From Usitatibacter sp. (GTDB lineage Bacteria; Pseudomonadota; Gammaproteobacteria; Burkholderiales; Usitatibacteraceae): a stretch of DNA of 64,000 bases. The notes below the pieces were generated by a model, which was not told where the DNA came from, searched no databases, and was given only the letters and a program-made list of their open reading frames with translations. Location of the stretch: the NCBI GenBank assembly GCA_036271595.1, contig DATBAI010000013.1:7154-71153 (forward strand), given 5' to 3'. A program made the position numbers and the translations under genes. Shown one piece after another: positions 24,513 to 51,638 of this stretch. Positions within the stretch are counted from its first letter, which is position 1. Every line of letters starts with the position of its first letter.

Positions 24513-24671
24513 CTACGGCTTTTTCGGGGTCTTGTACTCGTCTTCCTTGTGGAGCGGCTTCCAGACGGTCTCGTAACCGACAAATCCCTTTTCGTTCGGA
24601 GGCTTCTGCCGCGTCGTGTAGTAAGGCGTATGGCCGTCGGGGACCTTGGTGACGGGTTTTTGCTCGCTCAT
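24513..24671 (-). CDS. Small 52-aa hypothetical protein (not in the ORF track)
   Basis: GGAG RBS + ATG; MSEQKPVTKVPDGHTPYYTTRQKPPNEKGFVGYETVWKPLHKEDEYKTPKKP; fills the gap in the operon. Confidence 0.75.
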   Translation of the reverse strand: MSEQKPVTKVPDGHTPYYTTRQKPPNEKGFVGYETVWKPLHKEDEYKTPKKP

Positions 24672-24701
24672 GGGTCAGCTCCTTTCGCGTGAATTCATTT
24701 T

Positions 24702-25211
24702 TCAAACCGGCCTCATGAGCGACCCATCGACGCGGGGCTGCGCGCCGATCGCCCGGCCGGCCTTCGTCTCTTCGCCGGTCGCCTCGCGCACCGTGAGGAT
24801 CTCGAGGCGGAAGACGACTTCCCTGCCGCAAAGGGGATTGTTGCCGTCGACCGTGAGCGTCTCGTCGTCCACTCGCGTCACGATGAAGCTGCGGGCGTGG
24901 CCCTTGTCGCTTTCCATGAGGATGGAAGTGCCGACGCGCCGATACTCCTCGGGGACGTTCTCGATGCGGTCGGAAAAAACCAGCGACTCGTCCCTCGGCC
25001 CGAAGATGCGGTTGCCGTCGATCGGGACCTCGATCACATCGCCGACGGACCTGCCCTCCAGCTCCTTGTGGACCGACGGGGCGAGAATCTCATTGTGTCC
25101 GTGGACGTAGCCCAACGGGAATTCGACGCATGTGAGGACATGACCCGATTTCCCGTCGATCACCTGGTAGGTGAGCTCGACGAACTTGCCGTCCTGGATG
25201 GATTCGCTCAT
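24702..25211 (-). CDS. SlyD-like FKBP-type peptidyl-prolyl isomerase
   Basis: VELTY, YVHG, FGPRD, VDGNNPLCG (cf. DGNHPLAG); no His-rich tail. Confidence 0.75.
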   Translation of the reverse strand: MSESIQDGKFVELTYQVIDGKSGHVLTCVEFPLGYVHGHNEILAPSVHKELEGRSVGDVIEVPIDGNRIFGPRDESLVFSDRIENVPEEYRRVGTSILMESDKGHARSFIVTRVDDETLTVDGNNPLCGREVVFRLEILTVREATGEETKAGRAIGAQPRVDGSLMRPV

Positions 25212-46294: not shown

Positions 46295-47281
46295 CTAGTC
46301 GTACAGCTTCTTCGCCGCCTTCCCGCCGAAGATGCGATACGAGAGGATCGTGTACGCCACGATGAACGGCAGCACGATCGCGGTCCCCAGCAGGAGCGCC
46401 CGCTGTCCCGAAGGATGCGCCGCCGCCTCCCAGATCGTGAGCTGGTCGATGACCACGTACGGGAAGATGCTGTAGGCGAGCCCGAGGAAGGAGAGCGTGA
46501 AGATCCCAACGGCCATGGCATAGGGCACCCACTCGCGCTTCCAATGCCCGCCGGGCCGCGTGGCCCTCCAGAGCGCGAACCACGTCACCGCCGTGGCGAT
46601 CGGAAGGATCATCACCCAGAGCGTGCCCGGGAAGTCGAACCACTTCGCGCGCACCGTATCGCTCACGAGGGGGGTCGCGAGGCTCACGAGCGCCACTCCG
46701 AAGGCGACCCACAGGAGCCCCCAGCGCGACCATGCGCGCGCCTTCGCCTGGAGCTCGCCCTCGGTCTTGTAGACGAGCCAGGTCGCGCCGAGGAGCACGT
46801 AGCCGCCGCAGAGGCTCGCTCCCGTCACGAACGCGAAGATCCAATAGCCGAATCCGCTCGCGAAGCCCGTGACGTAGCGACCGAGCATGACGCCCTGCCA
46901 GAAGGACGCCCCGAAGGAGCCGGCCCAGAAGAGCCAGTTCCAGAGGTCGCGATGCCAGCCGTGGGCTTTCACCCGCAGCTCGAAGGCAACGCCGCGCAAC
47001 ATGAGGCTCACCAGCATCGCGACGACCGGCAGGTACAACGCACCCAGCACGACGCCGTGCGCCTTCGGAAATGCCGCGAGCAACACGCCGATCCCGAGCA
47101 CGAGCCAGGTCTCGTTCGCGTCCCAGAACGGCCCGATGGAAGACACCATGAACGATTGCTCGTCTTCGCTGGCCGCGGGCATCAGCATTCCCACGCCCAG
47201 GTCGTAGCCGTCGAGCACGACGTAGACGAGGACCGACGCGCCCATGATCACCACGAAGACGAGGGCGAGATCCATGGTCAT
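46295..47281 (-). CDS. cydB: Cytochrome bd ubiquinol oxidase subunit II (Cio-type)
   Basis: LDGYDLGVG, IGPFWDANETWLVL, LRGVAFE, YSIFPY. Confidence 0.92.
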   Translation of the reverse strand: MTMDLALVFVVIMGASVLVYVVLDGYDLGVGMLMPAASEDEQSFMVSSIGPFWDANETWLVLGIGVLLAAFPKAHGVVLGALYLPVVAMLVSLMLRGVAFELRVKAHGWHRDLWNWLFWAGSFGASFWQGVMLGRYVTGFASGFGYWIFAFVTGASLCGGYVLLGATWLVYKTEGELQAKARAWSRWGLLWVAFGVALVSLATPLVSDTVRAKWFDFPGTLWVMILPIATAVTWFALWRATRPGGHWKREWVPYAMAVGIFTLSFLGLAYSIFPYVVIDQLTIWEAAAHPSGQRALLLGTAIVLPFIVAYTILSYRIFGGKAAKKLYD

Positions 47282-48636
47282 TCCGCCGCGCGCGCGAGGG
47301 GCACGACGGCGGCGTGCGAATCGGCCGTGGGGTCCGTGGGATCCGCGCCTTTGCCCGCCATGTGCGTGAGGGTCACCATGTATGCGACGAGGAGCAGCGC
47401 ATACGTGATCGCATAGCCGGTGATGCTCATGCCGAGCTTCACGCCGCTTGCCGCGCCCACCGCATCGCGCGTACGCAGCAGGCCCGTGACGAGCCAGGGT
47501 TGCCGGCCCACCTCGGTCACGATCCAGCCGCAGAGCGTGGCGGCCCATCCCGAGAAGGTGAACGCCGCGAAGCCCCACAGCATCCATCGCGGCGGAACAC
47601 GCCCGCGGCGGGTGGCCCACACGCCGATCCACGAGACGGCCAGCATCAGGAGGCCGATGCCCACCATCGCGCGGAAGGCGAAGAAGAGGGGGCCCACCGG
47701 CGGCCGGTCGGGCTCGAACTCATCCAGCCCGCGCACCGTCGCGTGGGGATCGTGCTTGAGGATCAGGCTTCCCGCGTACGGGATCTCGATCGCGTAGTCG
47801 TTGGTTCGCTTCTTCTCGTTGGGAATCGCGAAAAGCACGAGGGGCATCCCGCCCTGCGTGTGCCACAGCGCCTCCATGGCCGCGATCTTGGCGGGCTGGT
47901 ACTCGAGCGTATTCAGGCCGTGCTGGTCGCCCACGAAGACCTGGATCGGTATGAGGATCGCCGCGGTGGCGAGCCCGATGCGAAGCGTGCGCCGCGCGAG
48001 CTCGTCGGCGCCGGCCTTCAGCAACCTCCAGGCCGAAAGTCCCGCGACGACGAAAGACGCGGTAAGGCCGGAGGCGAGCAGCATGTGCGTGAGGCGGTAT
48101 GGAAAGGACGGATTGAAGATCACCCGCCCCCAGTCGGCCGCGATCCACTGGCCCTGGTCCATCACGGCGCCCGCGGGCGTGTGCATCCACGAGTTGAGCG
48201 CGAGGATCCAAAAGGCCGAGACGGTCGTCCCCACCGCGACCAGGACCGTGGACAGCACGTGAAGCCAATCGGGCACGCGGTTCATGCCGAAGAGCATGAT
48301 CCCGAGGAAGGTCGCCTCCAGGAAGAACGCGGTGAGCACCTCGTAGGAGAGGAGCGGGCCCGCGATCGCTCCCACCTTGTTCATGTAGCCGGGCCAGTTG
48401 GTGCCGAACTGGAACGACATGGTGACGCCGGTCACGACGCCCACCGCGAAGGTGAGCGCGAAAACCTTGAGCCAGAGCTTGTAGGTCGCGAGCCAGCGCA
48501 GGTCGCGAGTTCGCTGGTAGGCCAGCCGGAAAACGATGAGGTACCAGGCCAGCGCGATGGTGAGCGCGGGAAAGAGGATGTGGAAGCCGATGTTGAGGCC
48601 GAACTGCGCCCGGGCGACGAGGAGGGTGTCTTCCAC
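47278..48636 (-). CDS. cydA: Cytochrome bd ubiquinol oxidase subunit I (short Q-loop, Cio-type)
   Basis: FHILFP, FQFGTNW, YEVLTAFFLEA, QPAKIAAME, TEVGRQPW. Confidence 0.93.
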   Translation of the reverse strand: MEDTLLVARAQFGLNIGFHILFPALTIALAWYLIVFRLAYQRTRDLRWLATYKLWLKVFALTFAVGVVTGVTMSFQFGTNWPGYMNKVGAIAGPLLSYEVLTAFFLEATFLGIMLFGMNRVPDWLHVLSTVLVAVGTTVSAFWILALNSWMHTPAGAVMDQGQWIAADWGRVIFNPSFPYRLTHMLLASGLTASFVVAGLSAWRLLKAGADELARRTLRIGLATAAILIPIQVFVGDQHGLNTLEYQPAKIAAMEALWHTQGGMPLVLFAIPNEKKRTNDYAIEIPYAGSLILKHDPHATVRGLDEFEPDRPPVGPLFFAFRAMVGIGLLMLAVSWIGVWATRRGRVPPRWMLWGFAAFTFSGWAATLCGWIVTEVGRQPWLVTGLLRTRDAVGAASGVKLGMSITGYAITYALLLVAYMVTLTHMAGKGADPTDPTADSHAAVVPLARAAE

Positions 48637-48693
48637 GATCGGTTCGCTGGCTGGTCGCCGATTCTAGCCCACCCGGAAGCGTAAAATCGTTCT

Positions 48694-51093
48694 ATGTCGG
48701 CTGCAGCTCCGCAACGCGGCAAGCTCAAGATATTCTTCGGCGCCTTCCCCGGTGCCGGCAAGACCAATGCCATGCTCACCTCCGCCCACCGGATGCGCGA
48801 GGCGGGGCGCGACGTGGTGGCGGCCGTCGTGGACGCGCACGAGAGCGCGGACCTCCTTCTCCTTCAAGGCTTCGAGACGCTCGCGTCTCCGGTACCCGGC
48901 GAGCTCGACCTGGATGGGGCGATCCGGCGTCGTCCCGAGGTGATCCTGGTCGACGACCTCGCGCACGCGAACCCGGCCGGTGCCCGCCATCCCAAGCGTT
49001 GGAAGGATGCCGACGAGCTTCTCGCCGCGGGGATCGACGTCTTCACGACGATGAGCGTGCAGCACCTCGAGAGCCTGAACGACGTGGTGGGCGAGATCAC
49101 CGGGATCCGGGAGGCCCAGACCGTCCCCGACACGTTCTTCGATACCGCCGACGAAACGATCATGGTGGACATGTCCGCCGACGAGCTGCTGGTGCGCCTC
49201 GCCGAGGGCAAGGTGCACGTGGGCGTGGCCGAGCGCGGCGCCGAGGGCACGTTCTTCAGCAAGGGAAGCCTTCTCGCGCTGCGGGAGATTGCGCTGCGCC
49301 GAACCGCGGACGTGGTCGAGGACGAGGTGCGCCGGCTTCGCGCCGACAAGTCCGCGGAGGGCGTGTGGAAGACGCAGGGCACGCTTCTTTGCTGCATCGG
49401 GCCCGCGCATGGGGCCGAGCACGTCGTGCGAAGCGCCGCGCGGCTCGCCAAGGGGCTCGCGGCTCCGTGGACCGCGATCTACGTCGAGACGCCGCACCTC
49501 CAGCGCCTGCCCGGGCCCGAGCGCGGCCGCATCCTCAACGTCGTGCGCCTCGCCGAGGAGCTCGGTGCGGCCACTGCGATCGTCACGGGCAACGACGAAT
49601 CCCAGGCGATCGTCGACTACGCGTGCGAGCACAACATCGGGCGCGTTGTCGTGGGGCGCGGGCGCGTCCGCCGGGTCTTCACGGGGAGGAGCGTGAGCGA
49701 GCGCCTCGCCGCGGCCGACGCGAGCCTGGACGTGATCGAGATCGGGAGGTCCGGTTCGGATGCGGGTGTCGCGGTGGAGGCTCCGGCGCCGGTGCCGCGG
49801 CTCGCCCGTGTCGAAGGCTCACGCGTGGGAGAGAAGCGCGCCCGCTATGTGTGGACCGTGCTCGCATGCGCGGCGGCCACCGGTGTCTCGAGCGCGATCC
49901 ATCCCACGTTCGAGCTCGCCACCATCGCGATGTTCTACACGCTCACCGTGGTGCTGCTCGCGGTGAAGTGGGGCCGTGGCCCGGCGGTCGTCGGCGCCGC
50001 GATCAACGTGGCGGCGTTCAAGTTCTTTTTCGTGCCGCCGCGCTTCAGCTTCGTCCCCGCCGACATCCAGTATTTCCTGACGTTCGCCGTGATGCTGGCG
50101 GTGGGCGTGCTGATCGGCCAGCTCGCCGGAAGCCTGCGCTTCCAGGCGCGCGTCGCCGCCCATCGCGAGCGGCGCGCACGCACGCTCTACGAATTCGCTC
50201 GCGACCTCGCACAGCTGCGTACGCCCGCCGAGGTGATCGAGAAGACCGAGGACTTCATGTCGCGCCAGTTCAAGGCGCGCGTGGCCGTGCTGGTGCCCGA
50301 TTCCACGGGCACGCTCACTTCCCCCACGGCGCGCGGCATGACCAATCCGTTCGACAGCACCGCGGCGCAGTGGGCGTTCGACCAGGCGCAGCAGGCGGGC
50401 GCCGGGACCGAGACGCTCGCCGGCAACGAGTACCTCTTCCTGCCCCTCAAGTCGCCCACCCGCACGCGCGGCGTGCTCGCGGTTCGCCCCGAACGAACGC
50501 GCGACCTCTTCATCCCGGAGCAGCGCCACCAGTTCGAGATCTTCGCGACGCTCGTGGCCACGGCGCTCGAGCGCGTGCACTACGTGGACGTGGCCCGCGA
50601 TGCGCTCCTCATGGCCGGGTTGCAGAGCGGCGACCTGCGCCTGGAACGCGAAGCGCGCAAGCCCGCGGAGCTCGTGGACGATGCGCTGCGTTCCGTGGGA
50701 ACCCTCCTCGGGCGCCACGAGCTCGAGCTGCGCATCGCGAGCGACCTGCCCGAAGTGTCGGTGGATCCGCTCCTCGCCGAGCGCGTGCTCACGAGCCTCA
50801 TCGGCAACGTTGCCCGCCACACGCCGGCGGGAACGCATTTCACCGTCGAGGCCAAGGCCCATGGCGGTTTCGTCGAGTTCGCGGTTGAGGACAGCGGGCC
50901 TGGGCTTCCGCAGGGCCGCGAGGAGGAGCTCTTCGAGTCGTTCGCGCGAGGGGCGACCAAGCGCGCCCGCAAGGGCGCAGGGCTGGGCTTGGCGATCAGC
51001 CGTGCCATCGTCGAGGCGCACGGCGGCACCATCCGCGCGGAGTCGCGCGAGGGCCGCGGCACGCGGATCGTCTTTACGCTCCCCGACGCCTAG
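48694..51093 (+). CDS. kdpD: KdpD homolog lacking the HisKA/DHp domain
   Basis: KdpD N-domain (GKLKIFFGAFPGAGKT), USP, 4 TM, GAF, HATPase; no H-box between ARDALL and MAGLQSG. Confidence 0.8.
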   Translation: MSAAAPQRGKLKIFFGAFPGAGKTNAMLTSAHRMREAGRDVVAAVVDAHESADLLLLQGFETLASPVPGELDLDGAIRRRPEVILVDDLAHANPAGARHPKRWKDADELLAAGIDVFTTMSVQHLESLNDVVGEITGIREAQTVPDTFFDTADETIMVDMSADELLVRLAEGKVHVGVAERGAEGTFFSKGSLLALREIALRRTADVVEDEVRRLRADKSAEGVWKTQGTLLCCIGPAHGAEHVVRSAARLAKGLAAPWTAIYVETPHLQRLPGPERGRILNVVRLAEELGAATAIVTGNDESQAIVDYACEHNIGRVVVGRGRVRRVFTGRSVSERLAAADASLDVIEIGRSGSDAGVAVEAPAPVPRLARVEGSRVGEKRARYVWTVLACAAATGVSSAIHPTFELATIAMFYTLTVVLLAVKWGRGPAVVGAAINVAAFKFFFVPPRFSFVPADIQYFLTFAVMLAVGVLIGQLAGSLRFQARVAAHRERRARTLYEFARDLAQLRTPAEVIEKTEDFMSRQFKARVAVLVPDSTGTLTSPTARGMTNPFDSTAAQWAFDQAQQAGAGTETLAGNEYLFLPLKSPTRTRGVLAVRPERTRDLFIPEQRHQFEIFATLVATALERVHYVDVARDALLMAGLQSGDLRLEREARKPAELVDDALRSVGTLLGRHELELRIASDLPEVSVDPLLAERVLTSLIGNVARHTPAGTHFTVEAKAHGGFVEFAVEDSGPGLPQGREEELFESFARGATKRARKGAGLGLAISRAIVEAHGGTIRAESREGRGTRIVFTLPDA

Positions 51094-51563
51094 AAGCGCG
51101 ATCCGCCGAGGATCGCGTCGATGTCGCAGGTCTCGGAGCCGGTCAGCTTGATCGAGAGCCGGATCGACATCGCATTGGCCGTGGCGCTGATCGACTGCGC
51201 CTGGAAGTTACCCGTCTTGCCGTCGGTGCAGCTGTAGAAGCCGGTCCACGTGGGCTGGAACCGATCGGCCGTGTACGCACCGCTGTACGTGCACTGCAGG
51301 CCCGTGATGCCGATCTGGTTGATGCCGATCGTGGCGGCGGTCCTGTCGTAGCCGATGTCGTATTCGGCGTAGGTGCCCCGAGTTCCGTTGTTCTGCGTCG
51401 CCGCGCAGTTGCTGCGCTTCTCCAGGTCCGCCCCGTTCCAGGCGCCGGGCAGGAGGAGGGCGGGGTCGTCGGGTCGGGCGACCGGGTTTCGGGCCTGGGC
51501 CCATGCCGCGGGCGCCGCGAGGCTCGCGCAGGCGAACAGGAGGAACAGAGGTTTGCGGTTCAT
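51090..51563 (-). CDS. Secreted hypothetical protein, Cys-containing, beta-rich
   Basis: Signal peptide ending AWA-Q; 157 aa; 4 Cys in the mature part. Confidence 0.7.
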   Translation of the reverse strand: MNRKPLFLLFACASLAAPAAWAQARNPVARPDDPALLLPGAWNGADLEKRSNCAATQNNGTRGTYAEYDIGYDRTAATIGINQIGITGLQCTYSGAYTADRFQPTWTGFYSCTDGKTGNFQAQSISATANAMSIRLSIKLTGSETCDIDAILGGSRF

Positions 51564-51638
51564 GGTGGCCCATTCCTCTGGCCACCGGCGCACGCGCGGG
51601 TTTCCGCGCGCGGCTGGTCCGTTGGAGCTATGTAAGGG

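Follow-up and report, generated by a model that had tools for sequence, protein, structure and literature searches.

KdpD, a textbook sensor kinase, has recently turned out to combine serine and histidine kinase activities in tandem. In Escherichia coli, the KdpD N-terminal domain is an atypical serine kinase that phosphorylates Ser162 of KdpB (Silberberg et al. 2024, Nat Commun 15:3223, PMC11018627). This activity requires the Walker A motif, the Walker B residues D109/E110, and the W39/R190 pair, and it is abolished by the E110A and W39A/R190A substitutions (PMC11018627). Natural KdpD forms without histidine kinase (HK) function also exist, as found in a survey limited to species with an annotated Kdp pump (PMC11018627). 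Here, we describe a KdpD paralogue of Usitatibacter sp. that falls outside these published classes. It is encoded on the plus strand at positions 48694 to 51093 of a 64,000-nucleotide stretch (hereafter, the window) of contig DATBAI010000013.1, assembly GCA_036271595.1. This short KdpD has lost the phospho-acceptor (DHp) hairpin and nothing else, and its sequence points to a probable new use as a sensor for which the usual signaling route is closed. No description of this KdpD form turned up in searches of the literature.

An ATP-binding domain of the Bergerat fold can act without a DHp, as it does in the GHKL serine kinases (the SpoIIAB/RsbW anti-sigma factors, HATPase_c_2). Kinase-like sensors with no usable phospho-acceptor are known as well, namely, histidine pseudokinases such as DivL, RetS, and PsmA and the incomplete histidine kinases (iHKs). 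The latter are defined by an HATPase domain without HisKA, and 869,964 such sequences from RefSeq have been analyzed (bioRxiv 10.64898/2026.02.27.708494).

Architecture of the short KdpD and its missing hairpin

The open reading frame (ORF) spans 799 amino acids plus the stop codon and translates without internal stops, as the original prediction had stated. The domains listed in that prediction were recovered by Pfam, with the USP region supported by a weak match and by the fold of an AlphaFold2 (AF2) model. The gene and its parts are as follows.

48694-51093, plus strand: DHp-less KdpD paralogue, supported by the ORF, its translation, domain matches, and orthologues in 41 of 46 genomes of the genus
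48712-49317, plus strand: KdpD N-terminal P-loop domain, residues 7-208 (PF02702, E = 2.8e-68)
49378-49743, plus strand: USP-like alpha/beta domain, residues ~229-350 (weak Pfam Usp match, E = 0.068; within the span of the KdpD equivalog profile)
49846-50166, plus strand: DUF4118 four-helix membrane domain with four transmembrane (TM) helices, residues 385-491 (PF13493, E = 3.8e-27; model helices at 375-506)
50224-50574, plus strand: GAF domain (GAF_3), residues 511-627 (PF13492, E = 6.4e-12)
50515-50628, plus strand: single connecting helix across the junction, residues 608-645, replacing the DHp hairpin (AF2 model; 67-residue gap relative to canonical paralogues)
50635-51090, plus strand: CA (HATPase_c) domain with intact N, G1, F, and G2 boxes (PF02518, E = 1.4e-26; Pfam match at residues 691-798)

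The N-terminal P-loop domain carries the Walker A motif GAFPGAGKT and the Walker B motif DDLAH. In the USP-like region, the AF2 model shows alternating strands and helices that form an alpha/beta fold at residues 231 to 350. A Foldseek search against the PDB returned only generic histidine kinase catalytic cores.

No Pfam match to HisKA (PF00512) was found anywhere in the 799 residues. When the window protein and 19 orthologues were aligned with five canonical KdpDs encoded in Usitatibacter genomes, a clean gap of 67 residues appeared that corresponds to both DHp helices, including the SHDLRTPL motif, and this gap spans the H-box in all 19 of the 19 short forms. Together, these two results confirm the central claim of the original prediction that the DHp is missing. 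In this region, the canonical proteins read ...ALERVHYVDVARDALV[KIESERLRNSLLSALSHDLRTPL...LVNNLLD]MARIQSGE, where the part in the outer brackets is absent from the short form. The window protein reads ...ALERVHYVDVARDALL-MAGLQSGD, and the consensus of the short forms is ...ALERVHYVDVARDAL(L/M)L-MA(G/R)(L/I)QSG, the hyphen marking the junction. The junction, previously placed near position 50611, lies exactly at 50610/50611, between codon 639 (CTC, ending at 50610) and codon 640 (ATG, starting at 50611). In the AF2 model, which was built from 38 family members (mean pLDDT, 70; pTM, 0.37), one unbroken helix runs from residue 608 to residue 645 and is followed by the first strand of the CA domain; the helical hairpin is absent. 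The spacer between the GAF and CA domains amounts to about 20 residues in this single helix, and the model therefore leaves no room for a cryptic DHp.

The short KdpD shares the domain order of the canonical, E. coli-type KdpD (NF007793), that is, KdpD-N, USP, DUF4118, GAF, and CA. However, the canonical system also has the DHp (67 residues, with the H-box and H673), the kdp operon, and kdpE, all of which are missing here. The match to the NCBIfam KdpD equivalog NF007793 covers profile positions 17 to 654 and then a second stretch, and its score of 798.6 bits is below the cut-off of 1123. With no DHp, a sub-cut-off score, and no Kdp system, the short form fails membership of KdpD proper. The score against the KdpD-like non-kinase potassium sensors (NF038185), a family of short, N-terminal-only proteins, is below the cut-off as well (220.7 bits versus 550).

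The comparison with the "KdpD/Usp only" and "truncated DHpCA" classes described previously (PMC11018627) yields a similarly mixed picture. Like the short form, these proteins are incapable of HK activity, keep the N-terminal P-loop domain, and have no adjacent KdpE. They lose the C terminus entirely, however, and have been interpreted as acting solely to regulate KdpB, whereas the short form loses only the DHp and keeps the CA boxes intact, carries changes in two residues of the serine kinase site, and occurs where KdpB is absent. The short form thus stands apart from the published KdpD classes that lack HK function. It belongs instead to the broad category of incomplete or pseudo-HKs: an HATPase_c domain is combined with sensor domains, there is no acceptor domain, and the protein is conserved and not decaying. 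What it shares with the members of this category is a kinase-like sensor without a usable phospho-acceptor; in contrast to DivL and RetS, which keep the DHp for protein contacts, it has no DHp at all, and unlike the many iHKs that carry an unrecognized HisKA-like hairpin, it has no space for one. The GHKL serine kinases are more distant, with a sub-threshold cross-match to HATPase_c_2 (PF13581; 19.8 bits versus a cut-off of 27.4) and no STAS or anti-sigma partner among the genes neighboring the short kdpD. In databases, the short forms are named "DUF4118 domain-containing" or "ATP-binding protein" by the NCBI pipeline and "KdpD histidine kinase" by JGI; judging by the sequences, the JGI label cannot be correct for these proteins.

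Conservation, origin, and uncoupling from the Kdp pump

Of the 46 species-level Usitatibacter genomes, 41 encode the short form in an uninterrupted frame with the same junction, at 64 to 90% identity to the window protein. Matches in these genomes cross the junction as one piece, without internal stops. Altogether, all 42 copies, from 41 independently assembled genomes, are open and have an identical junction, and the contigs that carry them reach 1 Mb. In a search of metagenome protein clusters in a collection of 5.8 billion proteins, the best 120 clusters (at 90% identity) all combine KdpD, DUF4118, GAF, and HATPase_c, and PF00512 is found in none of these. The clade is common in soil metagenomes, with more than 120 clusters at this identity level. 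Two genome bins each contain two differing copies of the short kdpD, with, e.g., 90% and 70% identity (G023, contigs C67 and C142; G050, contigs C342 and C473). These double copies more likely reflect mixed bins (G023 has 6% contamination) than true duplication.

The ratio of nonsynonymous to synonymous substitution rates (dN/dS; pairwise NG86 estimates) is far below 1 in every domain of the short form, the CA domain included. For the whole gene, the closer pairs give 0.10 to 0.27, compared with 0.17 to 0.31 for the canonical paralogues. Among the individual domains, the values for close or closer pairs are 0.06 to 0.21 in KdpD-N, 0.06 to 0.39 in the CA domain, and 0.01 to 0.13 in the GAF domain, the most constrained part of the protein (0.18 to 0.37 in the canonical paralogues). 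Across 38 sequences, the residues of the nucleotide-binding boxes of the CA domain are invariant (N705, D733/G735/G737, F747/F750, and G763-L766). The junction helix is nearly so, with residues 625-628, 633-637, and 640-641 fixed.

These observations bear directly on whether the gene is real. That it might be decaying, an option left open by the original prediction, or be an assembly artefact is suggested by the missing domain itself and by nothing more. The same junction recurs in 41 independent assemblies and in more than 100 metagenome clusters, and misassembly is therefore untenable. Decay is contradicted by the clean gap in the alignment, by 42 open copies on long contigs, by invariant motifs, and by dN/dS ratios well under 1 where neutral divergence would have been the signature of a dying gene. 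We therefore regard decay or artefact as hardly credible. The deletion is not private to one strain, since 41 of the 46 genomes share it, and its boundaries are fixed in a clade that has diverged to 64% identity. Full-length copies do occur in some genomes, where they are separate paralogues within the kdp operon. The earlier leaning toward retained function is thus well founded, and the substitution pattern shows purifying selection acting on the short KdpD in a large clade of Usitatibacter.

A survey of the family (143 genomes from 9 genera) showed that the short form is confined to Usitatibacter; in the other 8 genera, all matches are of the canonical, two-piece kind. Among 1.84 billion representative proteins, a search recovered the Usitatibacter clade (P0106 and fragments) and only one further one-piece relative of ~800 residues, P0144, with 41% identity. 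An 872-residue representative protein, P0143, continues after the GAF domain as Arg/Ala/Gly-rich nonsense. It resembles a gene call that slipped out of frame in a contig of high GC content rather than a real KdpD variant.

The short KdpD is 58 to 61% identical to the canonical KdpD of the same genus over residues 1 to 640. In a maximum likelihood tree of KdpD, from which the DHp columns were dropped by gap trimming, the short clade is monophyletic with 100% support and sits on a stem of 0.31 beside the Usitatibacter canonical KdpDs, whereas P0144 is distant. This long-stemmed placement beside the resident canonical form indicates duplication and one deletion. On this reading, a resident kdpD was duplicated, one copy suffered a single in-frame deletion of 67 codons, and a burst of change was followed by conservation. 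In a tree of CydA, which is encoded next to the short kdpD, three closed genomes without the short form, possibly those of the cultured isolates, make up one clade (96% support), and G002, another genome without it, nests among the carriers. This topology fits a single gain, or a single early loss, plus a secondary loss.

Neither kdpE nor kdpFABC adjoins the short kdpD in the window, as had been noted in the original prediction, which called the gene an orphan. The label holds but understates the case, given that the pump is missing genome-wide and not just locally: in the whole source assembly (3.9 Mb, 92% complete), there is a single KdpD-N match and no match to KdpA or KdpC. The sole P-type ATPase of this genome is a copper-type P1B pump located beside a CDF exporter. 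Conversely, canonical kdpD copies are found in the order kdpA-kdpB-kdpC-kdpD-kdpE or in an arrangement in which kdpCBA is divergent from kdpDE. KdpA is present in 18 of the 46 genomes of the genus, and all 18 also encode a canonical KdpD, often on the same contig. In 23 genomes, the source genome among them (12 of the 23 are at least 90% complete), the short form is found without KdpA and without canonical KdpD. Thus, the canonical KdpD tracks KdpA, and the short form is independent of kdpFABC, kdpE, and the canonical kdpD. A role as a dominant-negative partner of the canonical KdpD was rejected because the canonical copy is absent from these 23 genomes. A new P-type ATPase as the target was rejected because the one such pump in the genome is of the copper type.

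Genomic neighborhood

On its two sides, the short kdpD is flanked by the following features.

46295-48636, minus strand: cydA (47278-48636) and cydB, encoding a short cytochrome bd-type quinol oxidase (PF01654, PF02322)
48637-48693, no strand assigned: divergent intergenic region of 57 bp between cydA and the short kdpD, with two back-to-back -10-like boxes
51090-51593, minus strand: small secreted protein with the signal peptide MNRKPLFLLFACASLAAPAAWA, convergent with the short kdpD (from its translation; no Pfam family)

The gene cydA is the divergent neighbor of the short kdpD in 18 of the 19 orthologous loci whose sequence extends far enough upstream, at a spacing of 45 to 100 bp across loci. 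In the window, the two -10-like boxes are GATTCTA at 48660-48666 (on the minus strand, reading TAGAAT leftwards) and TAAAAT at 48682-48687, 6 nucleotides before the ATG. The same back-to-back arrangement is present in 18 orthologous loci. In the orthologous loci L004 to L021, TAAAAT, TAGAAT, or TACAAT is located 5 to 7 nucleotides before the kdpD ATG, without a Shine-Dalgarno sequence, and in some species, the two boxes merge into the palindrome ATTCTAGCTAGAAT. A consensus promoter scan of the intergenic region yielded no full sigma-70 match, and the boxes are accordingly a motif observation only. The arrangement suggests overlapping divergent promoters and a putatively leaderless kdpD mRNA.

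On the other side, about 11 of the 19 other loci, and additionally locus L045, have a small secreted ORF after the short kdpD. The usual downstream order in carriers is this ORF, followed by a PAS-GGDEF-EAL membrane protein and an S8 protease. In carriers, as in L045, the short kdpD, the secreted ORF, the PAS-GGDEF-EAL gene, and the S8 protease gene form a block between cydA and an addB-like PD-(D/E)XK gene. In four genomes without the short kdpD (L034 to L037), the block is absent from the site, and cydA abuts the addB-like gene.

A functional tie to cydAB was considered and not adopted: the adjacency is constant, yet cydAB also occurs in genomes without the short KdpD, there beside the addB-like gene. 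A tie to the GGDEF-EAL/S8 pair was rejected, given that the orthologues of this pair are located elsewhere in two genomes without the short KdpD. Since genomes that lack the short KdpD can still have cydAB and the GGDEF-EAL gene, conserved gene order inside a single genus is poor evidence of a functional tie.

Possible modes of signaling

We lean, with some reserve, toward the interpretation that the short KdpD is a sensor pseudokinase anchored in the membrane and that a partner, by contact, reads its nucleotide-dependent conformation. In the model, the final GAF helix continues unbroken into the ATP-binding CA domain, and histidine autophosphorylation and the feeding of a response regulator would have been lost. 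The TM/GAF module would sense a signal, possibly K+ or ionic strength; nucleotide bound at the CA domain, and perhaps also at the P-loop, would set the conformation; and this conformation would be read by the partner in place of His-Asp phosphotransfer. As proposed in the original prediction, we infer that the short KdpD may sense K+ and nucleotide.

The main reason to think that the CA domain still does something that needs nucleotide comes from the comparison with P0144. This 830-residue protein, encoded on a 6.1-kb JGI metagenome contig, is an independent DHp-less KdpD that directly follows kdpC. Y39 and E110 are both retained in it, whereas its CA domain is degenerate (NLLTYAGDH, DFGPS). 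Hence, P0144 fits a role as a pump regulator only and follows the logic of the published classes without HK function better than the Usitatibacter short form does. The latter shows the opposite pattern, with the CA pocket kept and the serine kinase site altered. Several points weigh against signaling by contact. The partner hunts in the genomes of the genus and in the neighborhood of the gene yielded no partner or output, and the adjacency to cydAB may reflect simple descent. The structural model, with the scores given above, is of moderate quality. Furthermore, the kept, catalytic-looking motifs of the CA domain are equally compatible with real phosphotransfer in trans, and the strong constraint on the N-terminal P-loop domain (dN/dS of 0.06 to 0.21) makes a kinase output at that end possible.

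The last point leads to an alternative in which the N-terminal domain itself is the output, a serine kinase controlled by the TM, GAF, and CA domains and acting on a substrate other than KdpB. The precedents are the established serine kinase activity of KdpD-N and the existence of natural HK-less KdpDs (PMC11018627), and the short forms do keep G-x5-GKT, the Walker B Asp (D109), and the equivalent of R190, all invariant. However, the equivalent of the adenine-stacking W/Y39 is N, D, I, or G in 19 of 19 short forms, compared with Y or W in 22 of 22 canonical sequences, and Asp occupies the position of the catalytic E110 in all but one of the 19 (18 of 19). In addition, the genome encodes no KdpB, its only P-type ATPase being the copper P1B pump, and a serine kinase alone would leave the kept ATP pocket of the CA domain unexplained. 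For these reasons, we consider a serine kinase with a new target unlikely. Less likely again is a split histidine kinase, in which the short KdpD would contribute sensing and ATP binding, and the histidine that it phosphorylates in trans would belong to a second chain, either a separate DHp-only protein or another kinase. The invariance of the CA boxes is what catalysis would require, and the genome from which the window comes encodes two small HisKA-only proteins that have intact H-boxes but lack an HATPase domain. It also has, outside the window, a potassium-related locus with a small kinase.

G000:C35:50227-50643: P0273, a DHp-only protein with the H-box SLSHDLRTPL
G000:C79:~24658-25014: P0274, a DHp-only protein that follows an NtrC-type regulator
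G000:C58:14900-18700 (L027 2933-6711): locus of the Kup K+ transporter, a mini-KdpD, and an OmpR-type regulator

The P0273 family is a conserved open frame of 145 to 205 residues in 32 of the 46 genomes, with 31 of the 41 genomes that carry the short KdpD having it against 1 of the 5 that do not. This association is confounded by phylogeny, however, given that three of the five noncarriers are one clade. Moreover, two essentially complete carriers (G049 and G052) have no P0273, whereas the noncarrier G002 does, and P0273 is unlinked to the short kdpD, its neighbors being Rieske proteins. With this partial co-occurrence, these counterexamples, and no linkage, P0273 and P0274 were set aside as phospho-acceptors and are kept as a lead only; a P0273-type mini-protein (about 140 residues, with the SHDLRTPL H-box) serving the CA domain of the short KdpD as an acceptor in trans is a long shot. 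The mini-KdpD fares no better. This 358-residue DUF4118-HisKA-HATPase protein without GAF or N-terminal domains, which is followed by the OmpR-type regulator and is divergent from kup, could pair with the short KdpD via the membrane domain. Yet it is present in only 12 of the 46 genomes, one of them without the short KdpD, and was rejected as a general partner, i.e., as the complementary half of the short KdpD. The mini-KdpD and its regulator may be the actual K+-responsive two-component system of the pump-less genomes. Finally, the short KdpD could phosphorylate itself on another histidine of the single helix that enters the CA domain, either H612, which is invariant, or H629, which is present in 33 of 38 sequences. 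This is very improbable. H629 is Tyr in the other 5 sequences and is also found in canonical paralogues with a normal H-box, so that it is ancestral rather than a replacement, and it was rejected as an acceptor on these grounds. Both histidines lack the sequence context of an H-box, the gene has no linked response regulator, and a single helix does not provide the four-helix bundle on which receivers dock.

Signaling by contact, from a nucleotide-bound sensor pseudokinase, is accordingly the interpretation we carry forward. In the short KdpD, nature has excised only the phospho-acceptor hairpin while the other domains, including the full ATP pocket, have been kept under selection in organisms without the pump. 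This makes testable both the DHp-independent role of the CA domain of a histidine kinase, be it nucleotide sensing, phosphorylation in trans, or a contact surface, and the signal to which the KdpD input module responds once it is freed from the control of a K+ pump. If the short KdpD is merely a pseudokinase that signals by contact, it would be one well-defined addition to a known category; if a separate protein does supply the acceptor, the two together would make a two-component kinase with its catalytic module and its acceptor module encoded by different, unlinked genes.

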